A DNA stretch of 62,132 nucleotides, filler included, from Hausera hauseri (taxonomy: Eukaryota), in the NCBI GenBank assembly GCA_046269625.1. It is 12 parts of 12 records of this genome, joined end to end, with 100 filler letters (N's around TTAATTAATTAA, not from the genome) between each part and the next. Parts side by side here need not be neighbours in the genome. Positions count along the whole stretch, not along the records: positions 26,303 to 30,533 come from JBJURY010686883.1; 11 more parts are not named here. One strand, 5' to 3'. The translations under genes and the position numbers were made by a program. Below, piece by piece: positions 23,120-49,163 of the stretch (the first letter of the stretch is position 1; each line of letters starts with the position of its first letter). Under the pieces are notes generated by a model. It saw nothing but the letters and a program-made list of their open reading frames with translations, was not told the origin of the DNA and did no database searches.

Positions 23120-26100
23120 CACAGGCCAAACGGTTAAAGGCAGGATGAAAACGGTGCCGGCTTAGCTGCATCAATCGATGATCCTACTGCTGAAAACGGA
23201 GGGTTATGTCCTAGATCGTGGCACTACACACCGTGATTAATTTCTGTCTGAGCAGCAAAATTCCTTGTGCGCGCATTTTCGGTTCACAATCCGTTAAAAG
23301 ACTGTAGCACTTTTGACGCAGAAATATCCATTCCCAATACTGAACTCGACTTTCGCTTTCATCCTTGAAACAACCAATTTTGTTTGTAATTACGTTACAG
23401 TGGATGACTCTGTGGGTAGTTGGACGTGTCCAGTAATCCATCTGCCATCATTTGTCGCTGAAGTTGTTCGTTTTTTAGTTTGAGGAAGAAACCCTCTGTG
23501 CTACCGGCAATTATATTAATTTTGCAGCCATCAAACATTTGTCAATAACGTGCCAAGTCGCGATACTGCAGCTCATACATCCGCAACTTGCTCAGATCCA
23601 ATACCACCTGTCCTATATAACTTGGCCGGTCTAGTACGACTTCCATGTTTAAAAGTACGGCAACCAATCCATCGGTAATGTGCATTTACCGCCTAAATTG
23701 AGCCTTACCGGTGTACGTGACCAACCGTTTTTCGCTGTTGCATGGGCGCACGTTGATCCGCTTTTTGAGATTCTCTACTACTTTTCCGTAGAGTGAATTA
23801 TTTTTCAGCTTGTATTAGTCTTTTTCAAACTTGCTGCAGCCTGCAGCTCGTTCTCCGAATTTCGACTGATGTACGCTTTGAATATCAAAGCCTGTACGAA
23901 TCGGATTGCACGAAGAAATTGTGTGATGCCAATGAACAATGTAATTCGATTTGGGTTAATACGTCATAAGTATTTTCTTCATCTTCGAGCCAGGCGGACA
24001 TTGACCAATTGGTGCGACTGGCAATTCATCCAGGTCATGTAGCTCATCTGGTACCACGAAATCGACTTCCATCAAGTATCCGATTGAGCTGTTTGCTGCT
24101 GTGTCTGCTCTCAGGAGATTTTCCATTGTCATCCAAGTCCTGTTTGCCGACTATCCATTCGAATGAACCGCATGGCAAGGGTTGTGAAAGCGCCCAGCCG
24201 TACAGGTTATTAATGTCGATATACAAGTGATGTGGTATTATCATCATCACTGGTAGCAGTAGCAGCACTAACATGGTGCTTGTTGACAAATGTCATGCCA
24301 CCACGAATACCAACATCAAACAGTCTGTACATTCTGGGTGTTGCAGCCGCTCCATATCCCGATCCAGTGACATTAGAGGTGACTCCCAACTCATTCTCGG
24401 TATGGAATAAAAGGTGAGTGGCACTAACCTATCTTCCTGCAACTCTTTAGTCCGAAATGCCTGAAATACATCGGCTAATAAGTACGCATCCACTTTCAGA
24501 TACTAAAGCATGTACTCCAACAGGTTTCTGCAGCCGAGGTCTGTCCAAAATCCCCGTGCTTTCTGCCACTCTTTTTCTGTGATACCGGACCAACGCAGCG
24601 GTAATTCTTCTATCGTCTGAAGCCGCTCATACGATACCGCAAAGTCATATGGAAATATGCCTTTGCTGCGTGCAATGTGCATAAGAAAATGTGTTGATGT
24701 TATCGGCACATCTTGCAAACCATTTACTAGCATTGCCAATGATTCATTCAGAAATTGCAATGAATGGAGAAAGAGTACACGGAAACGGTTTATACGAGCA
24801 GACAGGGACAGGTATTTCTCCATCGTAGTCGTAATTGTAGATAGTTCCCTATGTGGGAATCCATATATTGACCATTTTAAAATATGGTGACAATCATAAC
24901 CCCTGAAGTTATGAAAGACCGTAGGTACGAATGGCCGCACGCGCCTTGCCAAATTGCATGCAGCTCCTAGGTATCGGCCGGTAAAATGATCATGATCTGG
25001 TACAAGCTGCTCCTGTGCATCGAACGCTAACCTATTCTGACAGGAAACATTCATCGGTGGGTGCAAAAATCAACGGTTCATATTCGTCTGTCCAGACCAA
25101 GGGTTTATTGCAATTATTGCTATACCACGGTGCGATTTCTGCTTCTATTACTGTTTGCAACTGAAGGAAATAAAGTATGCAGTTCCAACCATGGAAAAAG
25201 TAAGACTGCGGCTGTTCAAAGACTTTTATTGGGTCAACTAATATACCGACGGCGATTTCAATATGCTTTTGGTCATATACGTCGTGCCGTTGTAGAATAG
25301 CTTCGATATCGGCATATACCACGTATGCTGGACTGCCGGTACATTGCTGTGCATTGTTGTTTCTGATAAATTATGTTTGCAGTGTCACATGTTTTGAAAC
25401 TGACCTGAAACCATGCAGACATATGAGACACCATTTACACCGTATTTGGTTTTGCATGAATTGTCTAAATTTGTCACGACCAGGTAATGAAAATTTTCCA
25501 TCTGCTCTAATAGCAACAAATTTACTTACTGCCCATTTGGGTTCCGACTTCAATAAATTATGTCCACATAAGAATTCTTGGAAATCTCTTCATCTGCCGG
25601 TATTTCTATTATTGTTATACCGGAACACGTTAATTGAGTGTCGTATTACGCCGCTCAAAAACCGGAATGGTTTTCAGTTTCATCGGCATCCAACATTCAT
25701 CGAAGTCCAATTCAAAAAAATACTGCCTATACTGATTTGGACGAATGGCGCTATGTCCACTTCGTTATACTTTAAGACTACCAGAATACTGTAAACCAAA
25801 CAGTATTCGTCATTAGTATTTTTTACATTCACATGCTTTACAGCTGCAGGTGTCGGTATGAATGATGGTCAGACAAGTAAATTATGTAACTCGACTTTGC
25901 TACAATAGAGCCGAGAGTGACCATTTTTATAATTTACCAGCCACTACCTTTTTCGGTGTAGTTGGCCATTTTCTTATCCAGTCTTTCTCCTACATGGACA
26001 ATATATCCTTCGGCATATGGCAGACCTCGATGTAACAGGTACCATTGTTTCCTGTATCCTTGTACGTTTTCAAATTGTGCTAGTACATAATACTGCACTG

Positions 26101-26302: not shown

Positions 26303-29300
26303 TTGAAAAGAAAATATTATTGGTATACTATGACTAAAGATGTCCAGGATTGGTGCAAAAGTTGCCCAGTCTGTGCCACTAGAAAGAACACCGGTTCAAA
26401 AATTAAAGTCCCTCTTAAACCAATAGAATGTCCACCAGCCCCTATGGAATTCTCAGCAATGGACATTTTGGGACCATTGCCTCTAACGATTAACGGAAAT
26501 AAATATATGTTAGTGTTTGTCGATTTATTTTCTAGATGGCCAGTTGTAATACCGATACCAGATCAAAAAGCTCAAACTATTGCTCAAGCTTTTGTTGAAG
26601 AAATCGTTTTTAATTATGGTGCACCAACCAAATTATTAACGGATCAGGCACAAAACTTCACAGGAGAAGTCATGACAGAGATATCGAAAATATTTCAGAT
26701 ATTGCAACTAAAAACTACCCCATATCATCCTCAAACGAATGGAACAGTGGAAAGATTTAACGGCATTTTAACTAACATGTTAGCTACAATGGTAAATGAA
26801 CGACAAGATGACTGGGATGAATACATTAAACCATGTCTGTTTGCAATAAGGAATACAATTCATCCTGCCACGAAAGAAACTCCATTTTACCTAATGTATC
26901 TTCGAGATACACATATGCCTGTTGATATAGATTTCAAAATGCCTGTATCCCATTTAAAGGATATGGAGTATAGAGAATTATTGGAAGAAAAACTCGGATA
27001 TGTATGGAACCTAGCCTCACGACATATAAAAATATGTCAAAAAGAGTATAAAGACAGATATGATGAAAAGGCTAAGTCTCATAGTTTTAAACCGGGAGAC
27101 AAAGTTATGTTGCACACACCGCTAAGTAAGAAAGGTAGAACACCAAAACTAGATAGACCATATAAAGGCCCATTTATGGTCCAAAAAGTGGACGAAACGA
27201 ATATCTATTTGAATAAAAATAAAAGAAACAAAATAGATCCGATAAAAGTTCACGTGAACAGATGTAAGCCAGCTCCAATGGAATCAAAAATTAGAAATGG
27301 AAACCCTAATCTATTAATGACAACTTTTATGATATTATGTTTGGTGACCTGTGTATCGACTCAATCTCTGGATGTCATATATAAAGCTGTACAAGTTGGA
27401 AAATATCCATGCATAAAAATTACAGCCAACCGGAACTTAACAAAAGATGAATATATACACATATTCATATCAAAATATCCTATTTTGGAAAAAGTGACAC
27501 CAGAAAATTGTGACTTGTTCTACAATCATTCAATACACACTTGCTGCGGACTTTCATTCGGAGAGACATATAGAATTCAATACGCGACAGGAAAAAGCGA
27601 CCAAAGTTATAGAACATACTTTTCATATCCCGGCACTACGCATTATTTTCACCGACCATATTTCCTTATTACATTTTACGCTAAGGTCATGAAAGATGGA
27701 CCCTGTGTGACTGCGGAACCTGACGTTATAATTACAGAATATAGAAAGTTCAAGTATATAATATTTGATGGAACTAACAGTATAGACTGTGAACCGAATT
27801 ATCAAGATCCATATAAATGTTGCCCTATCGTTTTTAACAAGCAATATACGATATATTACTGGACCACGTATAACGGCTATACATGGTCAAAAACAGCAGA
27901 TGGTCCAGAGATAACTGTAAGCTCTCCGGTAAAGGTTACCTCTATTTCGACAACCAAAATAATTGCCTCAGTAACAAAACCAAGTACACCAACCATATTA
28001 CAAAAAGTAGTAACTACTCAAACAATAGAATCTAAGAAGGATGTTAAAGAACTGGATATAATTATACAACCAACAAGTCACTCATTAGTTATTACAGTGC
28101 CTGACTTGAAGCATACAAACATAAAATTTGAGTGCCATCTTAACCACAGAGTGATCAGTGAGGGAGTTTTAACCCCTGAAGAACCGACGTCTGCGTGTAT
28201 ATTCCTGAAAGCTGACACAAATTATAAAGTCGTCATAACAGAATTAGATGACGAAGGAGAAATATTACGAACAGTTTCCCGTACAGAAAAGACTCTAAAA
28301 CAGATGATAACTACTCCTAAAATTATACCAATAATGACGACGCCAAAATCAGAACAAACCTTAAATAAATATCTTTGGATAATTGTTATATTATGTATCT
28401 TTTTAATATTATCATTAATATTGTTACCCGTAATAATCTGTTGCGTAAAAATAAAACAGCGACAACGTAGAGTAAAAGAAACACTAGAACAACTAAAAAT
28501 GTTAAGGGAAAATTCCCAAGACTCCTTAATAAAAGTAAACGCGCCTTTTCCAGAAAATCAACGGCAAGTTGAGAAACTTACCAACCAAAGACGGCAAGAC
28601 CGACTGTTAAAAAATAGGCAAGCTGAAGAGCTTGCCGACCCAAATTGGCGAATCCAACCATATAAAGACATAACCCTATGTCTGTGTACGAAAATATGTG
28701 ATAAGGCCGCCGAATCCTTGGCGACCTACATAAGAGATAAACGATCAAGAAAAGAAAATATTATCCTTTTTAAAACTTCTTGGTTAATATTAATGTCTTT
28801 TATTTTAGTCCAAGAAGGTACAGAATTAGTTCAAAGGTCAAATGCCTTTTACAATCACATCATGGCCAATCTCCTGGCTACGACCCATAAAAACTACTGT
28901 TATTACGGCAAAGCGACACTCATCCCAAATAATCTAAAAGGACATTCAGTATGCCAAAGGACAGGCCTCCTCCTTAAACTCCAGGCCAGATCAACGAACC
29001 TTTCAGATATTATAAACATATCCACGAAAACATTTGCCATATATATTTCAGTGGCAAAAGAGAAAATCCAGTTGAAAAGTAAAGCTCCCTCCACCGGAAT
29101 TACAGATGTGATGGATATTACAGAGCGCACAACGATCCGCTTAGATCCTCGCCTATACACAAATGTTGCCATAACCATCAGGACATACGACACGCCGTAC
29201 CCAATTATATATGTGGAGATAATAAAAAAGGAGAATATACCTCGTCCAACTTACCAACTTGAGGAATACTCTACACCAAGACCTAAAGAAACGGAAGTAG

Positions 29301-30289
29301 AAGAAGGTCTACCTTTTTTAAGAAGATCAATTCAATCAAAATCAGAAATCATAATAATGGCAATTAACTCAGTGTACTTAATGACCCCTATTAGAAGTAG
29401 AGAGATGATAATGATCGAAATTACTTTAATGGACCTAGAAGGTAACTCCATAAAAGATGAAATTCTCACCCCTAGAGAAAAGATAGACAATTATGACAGC
29501 CATATTACCGGCTTAAAAGAAGCCGATATCATCGGACGCAGAGATGCATATGAAGAAGAACCCCATTTAAGAAAAGCAATATTTGGGAAGGTGATAGTCG
29601 GTGTCGACATCTACAATATGCTCGCCAACATTCTCCGATACGATTACAATTACCTCCTCGGTATTAGAGACTTACTTTATCATAAAGAAATCAACCCTCA
29701 TCGAGAATATACTGCAAAGCAACTTTTAATGAAGTATAATCAGGGCATATACCCACAAAGAACAAAAGACAAGGCTTTAACGATCTTAAAGATTTATCGC
29801 AGTATTAAAGAATATAAAAAAGAGTGTCATGATGCATCTCCTATGGAAGTCCAAGAACCTGAAGTAACCCAAATAGCGCCTATCCATGTAGCGCCAATTC
29901 AAACGGTACCCTTATGCCCAATTATTCAACAAATATTGCCACAATCAGAAATTGATCAATCATCATCCACTATTCCAACCAAAAATCAAAAAGCAACCTC
30001 AAGCCCAATGACTAAAGACTGTTATATTGACTTAGAACCTTTGACCTTGGCGAGTTCATCAGAATCTATCCTTATTGACTTAACAAAGAAATCAAAGAAA
30101 AAAATCCCCAAATCAGAAACAGTAACCTTGAGAAAAACCATCAAGAAGAAAGGTAGAAGCCTCCAGATTAAATCAGCGAACTACCAAGATGTGAATGGAG
30201 TCGTTGAAGTCTATCCCTTGATGCTGAGGACAGCATCATCTAAGGAGGGAAGTGTTCAGCCAGGTGTTCACCAGTCGGACCTAAAATGA
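26303..30289 (+). CDS. Gypsy-type integrase polyprotein (5'-partial) with a ~990-aa extension: signal peptide, three FN3-like modules, stalk, TM helix, unknown domain, inactive DEDDh exonuclease fold
   Basis: One open frame of 1328 codons. CxxC half of the HHCC finger, D54/D114/E150 D,D(35)E triad, TPYHPQTNG and the GPY/F motif (RPYKGPF). Hydrophobic segments begin at 27317 and 28374. REXO4-like segment at 29345-29805. Confidence 0.9.
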   Translation: MKRKYYWYTMTKDVQDWCKSCPVCATRKNTGSKIKVPLKPIECPPAPMEFSAMDILGPLPLTINGNKYMLVFVDLFSRWPVVIPIPDQKAQTIAQAFVEEIVFNYGAPTKLLTDQAQNFTGEVMTEISKIFQILQLKTTPYHPQTNGTVERFNGILTNMLATMVNERQDDWDEYIKPCLFAIRNTIHPATKETPFYLMYLRDTHMPVDIDFKMPVSHLKDMEYRELLEEKLGYVWNLASRHIKICQKEYKDRYDEKAKSHSFKPGDKVMLHTPLSKKGRTPKLDRPYKGPFMVQKVDETNIYLNKNKRNKIDPIKVHVNRCKPAPMESKIRNGNPNLLMTTFMILCLVTCVSTQSLDVIYKAVQVGKYPCIKITANRNLTKDEYIHIFISKYPILEKVTPENCDLFYNHSIHTCCGLSFGETYRIQYATGKSDQSYRTYFSYPGTTHYFHRPYFLITFYAKVMKDGPCVTAEPDVIITEYRKFKYIIFDGTNSIDCEPNYQDPYKCCPIVFNKQYTIYYWTTYNGYTWSKTADGPEITVSSPVKVTSISTTKIIASVTKPSTPTILQKVVTTQTIESKKDVKELDIIIQPTSHSLVITVPDLKHTNIKFECHLNHRVISEGVLTPEEPTSACIFLKADTNYKVVITELDDEGEILRTVSRTEKTLKQMITTPKIIPIMTTPKSEQTLNKYLWIIVILCIFLILSLILLPVIICCVKIKQRQRRVKETLEQLKMLRENSQDSLIKVNAPFPENQRQVEKLTNQRRQDRLLKNRQAEELADPNWRIQPYKDITLCLCTKICDKAAESLATYIRDKRSRKENIILFKTSWLILMSFILVQEGTELVQRSNAFYNHIMANLLATTHKNYCYYGKATLIPNNLKGHSVCQRTGLLLKLQARSTNLSDIINISTKTFAIYISVAKEKIQLKSKAPSTGITDVMDITERTTIRLDPRLYTNVAITIRTYDTPYPIIYVEIIKKENIPRPTYQLEEYSTPRPKETEVEEGLPFLRRSIQSKSEIIIMAINSVYLMTPIRSREMIMIEITLMDLEGNSIKDEILTPREKIDNYDSHITGLKEADIIGRRDAYEEEPHLRKAIFGKVIVGVDIYNMLANILRYDYNYLLGIRDLLYHKEINPHREYTAKQLLMKYNQGIYPQRTKDKALTILKIYRSIKEYKKECHDASPMEVQEPEVTQIAPIHVAPIQTVPLCPIIQQILPQSEIDQSSSTIPTKNQKATSSPMTKDCYIDLEPLTLASSSESILIDLTKKSKKKIPKSETVTLRKTIKKKGRSLQIKSANYQDVNGVVEVYPLMLRTASSKEGSVQPGVHQSDLK

Positions 30290-30989
30290 ACTCAAAATAA
30301 ATGAAAATGAACAAAACCCACTTAAAATTTTATTGATCATATGTTGATTGACAGAAAAACAATATTTGACTTAATCTTCATATTGACTTAATTATTTTCA
30401 ATTTTTGTTATTCTATTTTAATTGATTTTAATTTATTCTGTACCACATGTTGTGACTTAAAATAGTATATATAGCTGTGTTTTTATTCATTCTGACCATA
30501 CCTTTTGCTTTGTATCAACTGACCAAATTTTTANNNNNNNNNNNNNNNNNNNNNNNNNNNNNNNNNNNNNNNNNNNNTTAATTAATTAANNNNNNNNNNN
30601 NNNNNNNNNNNNNNNNNNNNNNNNNNNNNNNNNCAAGTTCATGCCCATATGAAGATGCTTAAAATTGCCACCAATATTTACAAGAAAAGGCGTAGGAAAA
30701 TAAGCATTTTGATACATAAAATCTGATTGCTGAAGATATTCATCTCGGAATAAAGGCAAATTGATACTGGCAGAGTCTGTTCCATCAGTCGGTTGCAGGT
30801 TATCACGATTAACATCAGGAAAGTTAAAATAAGCATCGGTGTCGGTCGGAGACACCAATGCAACATCCTTTCTGCGCGTAACCATACGCAATGTGCAGCA
30901 TGACTTCCTGTTCGTTTTTGTCCAAATTTTGTTCCTTTAAAGGTATGCGCTTCATCGTTATTATTAAATGGTAAAATTATCCGAGAATA

Positions 30990-46232: not shown

Positions 46233-49163
46233 AATCAGCAACTAAATTGTTAACTCCGTTAATATGTTTAATATCGAAGTTAAATGTCGATAAGTATGAT
46301 ATTTGTCGTGCTTGGCGTGTGTTTCATGGCCATGATGTTAAGTAAAGGCTTGTGATCAGTTTGTAGAGTGAAATGACGAGCGACAAGCAGGTGTGAGAAG
46401 TGCTTTAAAGCGAGAACAATTGACAACAGTTCTCGATCAAATGTGGAATATCTGGTTTCAGGTGCGATTAGTTTGCGAGAGAAAATTTCTAATGGTTGGT
46501 TTTCTCCCTTGTAGATTTGGTGAAGTACAGCGCCTACAGCAGTGGTTGACGCGTCTGTAGTAAGGATAAGTTCTGCATCAGGCATGGGAAAGGCTAGAAT
46601 ATCTACGGTTTTGATTCCGTCACGTAGCTTGTCAAATTTGTCAACCAATTTAGGTGCCCATTGGATTGGTTGATGTTTTTTGCCGCCGCCTAAGTGTGCG
46701 AATGGTGCTGTCAATTCCGAGCAGTATGAGACGTATTTATGTACAAAGTGTAGTGTGCCAAGGAAGCTACGCATTTCGGTGGTCGTATGTGGCAACTGGA
46801 TGTTTTTAAGAGCTTCAACTCGGTCTGACTGGGGAGAATGACCGCCTGGTGTAATAACGTGGTCTAAAAGGTTAATGCGCTTTTTGAAAAAGTGGCATTC
46901 GTCAAAATTGATTTGGAGGTTGTGGTGGTTGAGACGTTGGAATATTGCACGAAGGTGTTCCTCGTGTTGTTTGGCCGAAAATGAAACGACTAGAATATCG
47001 TCCATATAATGGTGTGCAAACGGGAAATCTGCAAGAACTGAATCAATGTGCCGCTAAAAAGTTTGTGCGGCATTCCGTAAACCAAATGGCATGAATGGGT
47101 ATTCATAGAGACCAAAAGGAGTAATTACTGCAGTTTTTTCTGTCTTCGAGTGCTACCGGTATTTAATGGTATGCTTTAGCTAGATCAATGGTTCAATAGA
47201 TGGTGGTTGAATTAAGATGATGCAAGATATCCTTGATGAGTGGTAAAGAATATGCGTCCATGATAGTCAAGTTATTCAACTGCCGGTAGTCACCGCATGG
47301 TCTAAAAGTACTGTCCTTCTTGTACAACGTGTAACGGTGATGACCAAGGAGATTTGGAACGGCGTACTATGCCGGAACGTTCTAGTTCGAGAAATTCGGC
47401 TTCTACGACCTGTCTACGACGAGAAGACAGAGGCCGTACTTTTTGGAGTATTGGACGTTGGTGCTGTGTGACTATGTGGTGTAAAGTGCTGTTTCCGGGA
47501 ATAAAGAAACGGTATTTTTTAAGTACGCGTGGACAAGATGTGTTGACGAAGTGTTGTAAAGTTGTAGGTAACTGAGAGATTTGGTGAAGACGGTGAAACG
47601 GCTTGAGTAGTTGCAGATGCAATTTGTGAGTTGTTGGGTGATGTGCAGTCAAGTGGTATTTGGTGTAAGATGATTGAATTGAAGATTGTGTTAAATGAAG
47701 TTACTTCGCTGAATGGAACAATGTTGGTGGCAGTACCACACTCATCGACATCAAATCTCGATCGTATATCCATATTATTTCTGAAAATTTTACGAATAGA
47801 ATTATTGATATAAAAAATCGAAATTTTCATTGACTTTTTTAAGATTGACTTCCGCATTCCGGTCGACCGCGCGGTAATCGAAACGCTATTTATATGTCCA
47901 AAAATGTTGCCAACGGTGCCTCCCCTCAAGCATCGCTGACTGCAGTCAACCAGCAATTAGTAATGTGAGAGAAAGTCAGATCCTAGAATTGCCGACTGGA
48001 CGTTAGCGACTGTGAACGTCCAGTGGAAGGATGAAAGAAAATTTGGCAGAGTGAAAGATAATGTAATCGTGCCAGAAATGTGCAGCGGTTGGCCTCAAGC
48101 AGTGTATACAGATTTAATCTTGAATGGAGTATTTTGTGTAGGAAAGTATTGTGTTAATAGAGAAATTGCTACACCTGTATCAATGAGAAAGTCAACAGAT
48201 TGTGTTGTAGGGGCAGTGATTGCAGCTTTTAGAGTAGACTGCAAAAGAGACGTGTCGGCGTGCGGAATGTGAAGCAGTGCCTTTACCAGAGTTTGCCGTG
48301 ACCTCTGGCGGCAAACTTAGTTTTTTTGCAAAGATGAACTGGGATGACTGTGAGAAGTGAAGGCAGTACGTCTGTCGTTCGTATTGGATTTTAAGGTGCA
48401 GCCGGGGATACATTTATGTGCTTGATTTTTGAATCTTGCATGGTTCTGTCTGTTTTAATACCGCGTCGAATAATTGGGCATAAGGGTCAGTGTTGAAAGA
48501 TGTCTAGTAAATTATTGATTGAGCCTTTATGGAGTTTGGGAATAGATAATGTAGGCTGTGGGCTTTGGATAAGGAGTCTGTGATACCGTTGGACTGTAAC
48601 CAGAGTTGATGGAAGTGGAGCCACGTTTTACTGAAATTTTCATTATCTATGAAGCATTCAGTGCAATGTGTAGAAGTATTGATAGGATTTTTGTTTGAAG
48701 AATTTGCGTCGGTTAAAGTGGGTGGAAGATTTGGTTTGGTGTAGTAGAGAATGGATATTGCCTTTTTTGTGGTGGTTGTATCCGTGGTGTCAATGGTTGG
48801 CGAAGTGTTCATGCCACCACGGATACGGAAATGTATGTTAAAGCAAGCCTGATTTGAAAAAGGTAAAGTTTAGTTGAGCTGGATTATAGCGCCGTTTTGA
48901 GTGAGGTAAAAGTCGGGAAAACCAAGGAAAGAAATGCAGGTCTAAAGGTTGGGAATGTGTGGACGTGTTGTATTGAGGGTATAAATGTTTATTGTTAAAA
49001 AAAATGGAAGTGGGAGCCATAGTGCACCTGGGGGCGTGATGTGAGGGCGACGCCAAAGGCGCCGTCCGACCGACCGGCGCAGGGTTGGCGGTCGGGGCTT
49101 CCGCCCGGCCGTGCGGGCACAAAAATGCAGGGTGCCCGAGTTTCCCCTCAAAAGTGTGGCCAT
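46233..49163 (-). mobile_element. Decayed Gypsy element, copy B: leader, deleted gag, protease, RT, RNase H
   Basis: [22 protein letters not shown] (then a stop), YMDDILV, TDAS, YSTFDREL and TDHKPL; protease FLIDTG near 48170; homologous to copy A. Confidence 0.92.

Follow-up and report, generated by a model that had tools for sequence, protein, structure and literature searches.

Organization of the locus

The window, meaning the whole stretch of Hausera hauseri DNA that was analysed (62,132 nucleotides), consisted of 12 small contigs joined by N44-TTAATTAATTAA-N44 spacers. The contig considered here occupied positions 26303-30533. It is 4.2 kb long and begins inside an integrase. Its single ORF runs on the + strand from 26303 to 30289 (1,328 codons) and is open at the 5' end; all features given below are in this frame.

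The Ty3/gypsy integrase (26303-27277, open at the contig start) comprises an H2C2 zinc finger, an rve core and a C-terminal domain. It was identified with Pfam (rve, 1e-12; Integrase_H2C2, 1e-6) and by comparison with the PFV and Ty3 integrases in the PDB. A signal-peptide-like hydrophobic segment (27311-27367) was located in frame behind it by hydropathy, and has a counterpart in 7/7 of the clade loci described below. It is followed by a Cys-containing, beta-rich ectodomain with repeats and a Thr/Pro-rich stalk (27368-28369). The repeats are possibly fibronectin-III-like (ESM Atlas FN3 clusters at 0.85-0.87, taken as a lead only), and the ectodomain had no PDB match by sequence or by profile. 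A transmembrane (TM) helix lies at 28370-28447 (Kyte-Doolittle up to 3.45). The subsequent linker (28448-28825) contains an in-frame ATG at 28793 and fuses an accessory unit to this Pol-TM chain; it has 0 stops in frame, versus 13 and 9 in the other frames.

The accessory unit has two parts. Structure searches with a predicted model assigned the N-terminal domain (28826-29233) to a predicted double-stranded beta-helix, AlkB/cupin-like, without a conserved HxD...H triad. The second (29345-29830) was assigned to a REXO4/ISG20-type DEDDh exonuclease fold in which none of the five catalytic residues is left, on the basis of a family profile, an AlphaFold model, structure matches and a synonymous bias among sister copies. 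A low-complexity tail, Pro/Gln/Ser-rich and then Lys-rich, ends at the stop codon (29831-30289) and does not match that of the nearest relative, P0210. The final 244 bp (30290-30533) are AT-rich, with a GC content of 0.23.

Variant contigs from two public runs aligned to the contig in thousands (6,367 in run X1 and 1,316 in run X2, most less than 95% alike), and the sequence is therefore a multi-copy repeat. Most of the contig's words (0.72 and 0.57) occurred in two public runs, one of which may be the source of the window itself; no RNA dataset was present among the seven public runs listed as sharing them. Intron-bearing genes on other contigs and the type of element suggest a eukaryotic host, probably an invertebrate. 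The first-pass annotation had placed the domain in a mobile element, and the gypsy-type integrase in the same frame, together with the repeat, supported this.

Identification of the nuclease-like domain

The motifs quoted in the first-pass annotation as following the REXO4/ISG20 pattern were present at the position given there, in the + strand frame 26303-30289. A comparison with RNase_T/DEDDh families, suggested there as a check, was successful in part. Searched directly, the domain gave no exonuclease match in Pfam, NCBIfam or PHROGs; an HMM built from five intact element copies alone gave 57.4 bits on 29345-29830. The same HMM gave a maximum of 16.0 bits over 2,000 shuffles of the domain and 0.6 bits for the reversed sequence. 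The intact element copies themselves matched Pfam RNase_T directly, at up to 1.5e-11. A family profile of 10 rows, which includes the domain itself, matched ISG20L2 (1e-23), SDN1 (2e-17), ISG20 (7e-16), PolC exonuclease and PAN2, in that order. A phmmer search with the domain returned one match among 177,635 PDB sequences, ISG20, at E 0.39, and RNase_T and REXO4-like clusters ranked first in the ESM Atlas (0.92 and 0.91).

An alignment-based AlphaFold model had pLDDT values of 83-95 per 10-residue block across most of the nuclease domain. Among 48,161 chains, its best structure match was ISG20 (Z 16.8, rmsd 2.6 over 155 residues), with the next entry at 13.7. Foldseek gave E 1.6e-7 and TM 0.78 by target. 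The domain is 16-18% identical to ISG20-type structures and enzymes. Exuperantia, which we take to be an inactive protein of DEDD fold, was also among the structure matches (Z 10.0). By modelled fold and by the ancestry that the profiles indicate, the nuclease half belongs to the DEDDh exonucleases, REXO4/ISG20 subgroup; the intact-copy profile, the family profile and the comparison of the AlphaFold model with ISG20 all upheld the initial assignment.

A single-sequence fold of the domain was poor (pLDDT 40) and was set aside, and a Foldseek search using it was uninformative. Word-based protein searches with the domain yielded 0/1,058 and 0/29 candidates, scans of metagenome and viral contigs for loci matching the domain by itself were empty, and phage tblastn gave chance matches only. 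In the viral contigs no relative of the integrase was found, and the single nuclease locus there (L037) was weak and looked unrelated. Six candidate start forms of the ORF were absent from the protein collection searched.

The catalytic columns of the alignment hold Ala1020, Asn1022, Met1106, Gln1152 and Lys1157 (numbered from 26303; codons at nt 29360, 29366, 29618, 29756 and 29771, respectively). ExoI Asp-x-Glu is thus replaced by Ala1020 and Asn1022, the ExoII Asp by Met1106, and the ExoIII His and Asp by Gln1152 and Lys1157. The register near the ExoIII His is loose, and the segment is without any His. The loss of all three Exo motifs reported in the first reading accordingly holds at 5/5 catalytic positions. 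In a study of ISG20, single Asp losses abolished its activity (PMC7756014).

The nearest relative, P0210, is a standalone protein of 447 aa (28% identity over 301 aa, E 5e-32) and carries the same Ala-x-Asn at ExoI. As this replacement is shared at 28% identity, the residue loss long predates the present copy.

The partner domain and the fusion to Pol

A feature not noted in the first-pass annotation is that the nuclease-like domain forms the second half of an accessory protein with two domains. The N-terminal half is AlkB/cupin-like (approximately aa 842-977), and its model is of moderate confidence (pLDDT ~52-75). Comparison of the model with seven AlkB/2OG-type entries gave VIA Z scores of 8.0-8.6 over ~128 residues. 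Foldseek matched it to cupins. The double-stranded beta-helix fold is therefore predicted, and as cupins match too, AlkB ancestry is a possibility. The HxD/E...H iron triad is not conserved in a 59-row family alignment, which shows a single His column (83%) and no Asp column that is conserved; the conserved His is Ser in the 28826-29233 copy.

The unit is fused in frame to Pol-TM in the 26303-30533 copy only, and is encoded by separate genes in the seven clade loci. In relatives, the place of the linker is taken by a stop codon and an AT-rich spacer. The last part of the linker (aa 790-835) has a codon-position GC unlike that of coding DNA. We infer that a start at ATG 28793 would yield a 498-aa protein resembling the standalone relatives.

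Element lineage and relatives

A Pol search via the integrase separated nine proteins (365-408 bits) from 111 others (249 bits or less). Most of the nine carry the same in-frame membrane-protein extension, and close relatives of the integrase have the order RT-RH-IN. The nuclease domain was found in the same chain in 0/120 of these Pol proteins. An alignment of the clade's Pol retrieved 33 metagenome loci, seven of them in the clade (L001-L007, 50-57% identity), and three loci from a genome collection. Two of the latter are in the clade, and both end before any accessory gene. No long direct repeat was seen in the present contig, which is too short to show LTRs, a PBS or a PPT, or in L001-L007, all of which are partial loci.

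Each of the seven metagenome clade loci encodes homologues of the nuclease outside the Pol ORF, in genes of their own downstream of it. Of the nine such genes, five retain the complete set of catalytic residues (Glu replacing Asp at ExoII in one) and the other four are degenerate. Related elements with active-type versions, which the first-pass annotation had suggested looking for, are thus represented by these five genes, as judged from their residues. L005 and L006 each have a dead gene and then an intact gene, separated by 299 and 342 bp, respectively. Within the nuclease domain, identity between the two L005 copies is 25%. L002, L003 and L004 have an intact copy without a dead one in the available DNA, and L001 has a dead gene with no second copy in the following 580 bp. 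In the integrase tree, L005, L006, L007 and the 26303-30533 copy group at 91/89. The DNA 3' of the stop in the present contig (244 bp) is shorter than either dead-intact gap, and any following intact paralogue would lie beyond the contig end.

Further features of the clade were recorded. Throughout, the integrase is followed in frame by a signal-like segment, by beta-rich repeats (possibly FN3-like) and by a TM helix, and P0008 has a second unit of signal/beta-rich/TM type at its N-terminus. The Pol-membrane-protein chains end in [ST]-x-[VLI], which we take to be a class I PDZ-binding-like motif, in 11/14 of the clade (Pol ORFs of L001-L007; P0001, P0002, P0004-P0008) versus 3/111 other Pol proteins; the 26303-30533 chain reads on past this point. 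L003:2-10279 and L004:97-11205 are giant ORFs of 3,426 and 3,703 aa, in which a Monjiviricetes-type fusion glycoprotein precedes the protease in frame and aspartic-protease-like domains number two or three; the membrane segment linked to the integrase is additional to this true upstream fusion glycoprotein. L004 also contains CCHC knuckles and a weak ubiquitin-like match. Extra aspartic-protease-like units follow the integrase in L005:3-7106, L006:1-6660, L002:1-4773, P0002 and P0009; in L005 and L006, ankyrin repeats come after these units. A RING-finger gene (L007:2684-4135, Pfam 5e-7) separates Pol from the dead nuclease gene, and small accessory ORFs, two of them coiled-coil-like, lie beside nuclease genes (L004:11375-12040, L003:12229-12663, L005:10906-11517). 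Elements of the eukaryotic clade were also found inside bacterial metagenome-assembled genomes (L034, L035, P0003), likely through contamination.

Intact and dead classes of the protein family

Searching 1.84 billion proteins with the family profile yielded 6,287 matches at E 0.001, and the best 150 of these were examined. The N-terminal domain was present in 44 of the best 150. Of these 44, 28 keep 5/5 catalytic residues, 13 keep two or fewer and three are partial; none of the 44 N-domain matches among the best 150 of 6,287 keeps 3/5 or 4/5. The family comprises at least 50 proteins and is split into fully intact and dead copies, with DEDDh or DEEDh retained in many. Element context was established for the 26303-30533 copy and L001-L007 only.

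Trees were made without partial domains, P0121-P0123 (which match L loci), and P0124 and P0150 (presumed duplicates though not identical). In a tree of 77 rows, 58 family rows formed one group (SH-aLRT 98), apart from 12 putatively cellular, REXO4-like proteins. A quick nuclease-only tree suggested a single origin of all dead copies (24/24, SH-aLRT 93); this was rejected, as it failed once the catalytic columns were removed. With these columns removed, two changes were needed with the nuclease alone, four with both domains and five with the N-domain. In the two-domain tree (56 rows, four changes), 0% of bootstrap trees gave one change. There, 20/22 dead copies, including the 29345-29830 copy, grouped with one intact copy (82/92), and two dead copies were placed among intact ones. 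The probable history is one principal, old lineage of dead copies with additional independent losses, with certainty limited by long branches: the median end branch is 0.87 in dead copies versus 0.55 in intact ones.

Pro1057, Arg1058 and Asp1081 are present in 22/22 dead copies, versus 100, 68 and 71% of 34 intact copies, respectively. Lys or Arg occupies the ExoI Glu position in 45% of the dead copies. The 29345-29830 domain has a pI of 9.2; the ranges for dead (7.9-9.5) and intact copies (5.5-9.8) give no separation.

Two to four tandem REXO4-type domains, intact and dead mixed, were observed in P0142, P0151, P0158, P0169, P0176, P0178, P0179, P0182 and P0193. These proteins are without the N-terminal domain, and those placed in the tree lie outside the element clade.

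Retention of the dead domain

Variants were found at 134 places over 29200-29900. The best supported 40 of the 134 were examined, each change being classed alone. Of these 40, 32 were inside 29345-29830, with 22 synonymous and 10 non-synonymous. The 22/32 synonymous changes compare with 32% expected for transitions (p 2e-5, omega ~0.2, best 40 of 134 variants). No indel and no catalytic-codon change occurred among the best 40. As sister variants are mostly synonymous and P0210 shares the ExoI loss, the loss is old and the gene has been kept; the pattern of substitution indicates a nuclease-like domain under selection, in agreement with the retained pseudo-nuclease originally proposed.

Possible roles of the dead protein

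In an ancestor of the lineage, an extra gene after pol and the membrane-protein segment encoded an AlkB/cupin-like domain followed by a REXO4/ISG20-type DEDDh domain. Many copies, including 29345-29830, lost most or all of DEDDh yet kept the fold. The residues are lost, the frame is conserved, and relatives have intact copies, two of them beside a dead copy; the dead protein is therefore likely to bind RNA without cutting it. That it is a non-cutting, RNA-binding accessory protein which shields or chaperones element RNA is our preferred reading, and its chances of being right are judged to be about even. The first-pass annotation had suggested binding or shielding of RNA ends, or decoy action, as roles the protein may have, and they stay proposals here. 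Gene duplication would have freed one copy to drop catalysis. The dead copy would have been retained through binding of single-stranded RNA or RNA 3' ends on a basic surface and, bound to element RNA, might block host 3'-5' trimming or small-RNA processing, any cutting being done by the intact paralogue of the same element. The fusion behind the TM helix would put the unit on the cytosolic face of the membrane, unless the element's protease or a start at ATG 28793 frees it.

The evidence for RNA binding comprises the fold with its residue loss, the retention, the old ExoI loss shared with P0210, the bimodal family, the grouping of 20/22 dead copies, the dead-copy invariants, the basic pI, the tandem pairs and the precedent of the RNA-binding pseudo-exonucleases PML PXL, Maelstrom and EXD1. 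It is weakened by the failure of pI to separate dead from intact copies. ISG20 Arg53, presumably a ribose contact, aligns with Asp1065 of the domain, which also counts against RNA binding. The invariant Arg and Asp of the dead copies may be structural, and the tandem dead and intact arrangement is known from two sister elements, close to one event, with L001 lacking a second copy over the 580 bp behind its dead gene. Counting against it too are the faster evolution of the dead copies and their failure to form a single clean clade.

Other roles were weighed against this one. The dead protein may mimic a host nuclease of REXO4/ISG20L2 or silencing-pathway type and tie up its partners as a decoy or scaffold, RNA binding being incidental. 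Conservation of the fold and of a set of surface or structural residues without catalysis would suit such mimicry, as would the other host-manipulating cargo of the lineage (RING, ankyrin and ubiquitin-like domains), and an exonuclease-dead ISG20 mutant retained antiviral activity in the ISG20 study (PMC7756014). The identity of ~17% to ISG20-type structures is low for the mimic of a specific interface, and a decoy is considered fairly unlikely. A related proposal pairs the dead copy with the same element's intact paralogue, as a non-catalytic subunit that sets substrate choice or activity. The adjoining dead and intact genes of L005 and L006 invite it, and P0176, P0178, P0179, P0182 and P0193 join intact and dead domains in one chain; those of the five that were placed in the tree are not in the element clade. 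On the other hand, L002-L004 show an intact copy alone in the available DNA, so the dead copy is dispensable for the intact enzyme, and the two L005 copies are just 25% identical in the nuclease domain; this pairing is judged unlikely.

The domain could also have no such role, or have kept its old one. If it were a relaxed remnant, namely a duplicate being lost whose frame is open only via young element copies or the fusion to Pol, the longer branches of dead copies, the several separate catalytic losses and an apparently derived fusion to Pol-TM would be expected. The synonymous bias in 29345-29830 makes this very unlikely. So do the long open frames and invariant residues of dead copies at 18-26% mutual identity, and the absence of copies with 3/5 or 4/5 residues from the N-domain matches examined (best 150 of 6,287). 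A nuclease still working through a rearranged site is less plausible still, indeed highly improbable. Acidic residues remain near ExoII and ExoIII in sequence, and Asp1102, Asp1156 and Glu1039 could be enlisted, but both ExoI acids are missing. At the positions of Asp1102 and Asp1156, intact copies likewise have acids, next to the true ligands, and the nearby acids are not conserved among dead copies, the Asp1102 column being mostly non-Asp. The effect of single Asp losses on ISG20 cited above (PMC7756014) also argues against this.

A broader form of the RNA-binding proposal may be put forward tentatively, and is held to be doubtful. A widespread, envelope-bearing lineage of large gypsy elements would encode a two-part RNA-control module, consisting of an active AlkB-fold/DEDDh exonuclease and an ancient, selected pseudo-enzyme paralogue, which protects element RNA from host decay or small-RNA silencing. 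If true, the module would be a retrotransposon-encoded silencing suppressor made from the nuclease fold that animals deploy in antiviral defence (ISG20) and, in its dead form, in the defence against transposons.

The findings bear on how LTR retrotransposons counter host RNA surveillance. They define an unannotated two-domain family, the dead form of which is missed by Pfam, as well as a clade of gypsy elements set apart by the membrane-protein extension of their Pol. The family amounts to a natural experiment: the same protein exists in dozens of intact and dead versions, which in some elements are neighbours. Because intact and dead genes adjoin there, catalytic and non-catalytic roles are separable with small isolated proteins.

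Comparison with known systems

The closest published precedent found is the rotifer DEDDy ORF3. In Rodriguez et al. 2017 (PMC5408684), DEDDy (RNase D-like) ORF3 is described from the rotifer gypsy elements Juno and Vesta and from Athena/Terminon; its ORFs have intact residues and show no significant departure from neutrality. As there, a DEDD 3'-5' exonuclease gene follows pol in gypsy LTR retrotransposons, and the DEED motif variant also occurs in the present family. Unlike ORF3, the present family belongs to the DEDDh REXO4/ISG20 branch, has an AlkB/cupin-like partner and includes a large dead subfamily. Intact relatives have His in ExoIII, not the Tyr of the rotifer DEDDy type, and match PF00929 and ISG20-type structures.

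Cellular ISG20, ISG20L2, REXO4/REX1-type proteins and SDN1 are the best profile and structure matches and have the same motif spacing; they keep 5/5 residues, whereas the 29345-29830 copy is element-borne and keeps 0/5. The domain shares a DEDD fold without catalytic residues with PML PXL, Maelstrom, EXD1 and Exuperantia, in which that fold serves, or is assumed to serve, to bind nucleic acids. Those, in contrast, are host genes of other DEDD subfamilies, and the demonstrated likeness is one of fold. PML PXL (PMC13659232), and Maelstrom and EXD1 (PMC5408684), are described as RNA-binding pseudo-exonucleases.

The in-frame fusion glycoprotein before the protease in L003 and L004 resembles that of Burro giant gypsy elements of planarians (PMC6431247) and of GAG-ENV-POL errantiviruses (PMC13524379), as far as the available descriptions go; the corresponding part of the element is missing from the 26303-30533 contig. 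The weak ubiquitin-like match in L004 and the ankyrin repeats in L005 and L006 also recall these elements, a resemblance by description, without comparison to Burro sequence. Unlike the present family, neither is mentioned as having an exonuclease in the available portions of those two papers. Burro-type cargo (BIR, BCL2, MATH) gave no Pfam match in L003 or L004 at E 0.1. The AlkB domain of an orchid Ty3/Gypsy element (PMC9289625) is likewise an AlkB-fold accessory domain in a gypsy element. It is called a functional m6A demethylase in the title of that paper, whereas the present domain has a fold resemblance alone (Z ~8.5), no metal triad and a junction to DEDDh.

In the open-access literature searched, no REXO4/ISG20-type DEDDh gene, dead or active, was found in LTR retrotransposons; prior annotation elsewhere is possible. 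Exonuclease cargo of gypsy elements was already known. What sets the present family apart is the DEDDh subfamily, the AlkB/cupin-like partner and a large dead class able to adjoin intact copies.

Other contigs in the window

As the window consists of 12 contigs with fixed spacers, features outside 26303-30533 are unrelated to the finding. The contig at 4363-9425 looks bacterial (EF-P, DUF5688, DDE transposase), and the window therefore mixes organisms. Broken fragments of protein-primed polymerase B (Polinton-like) were found at 24503-25370 and 665-1192. A second gypsy RT/RNase H fragment, unrelated to the element described here, lies at 46280-47700.
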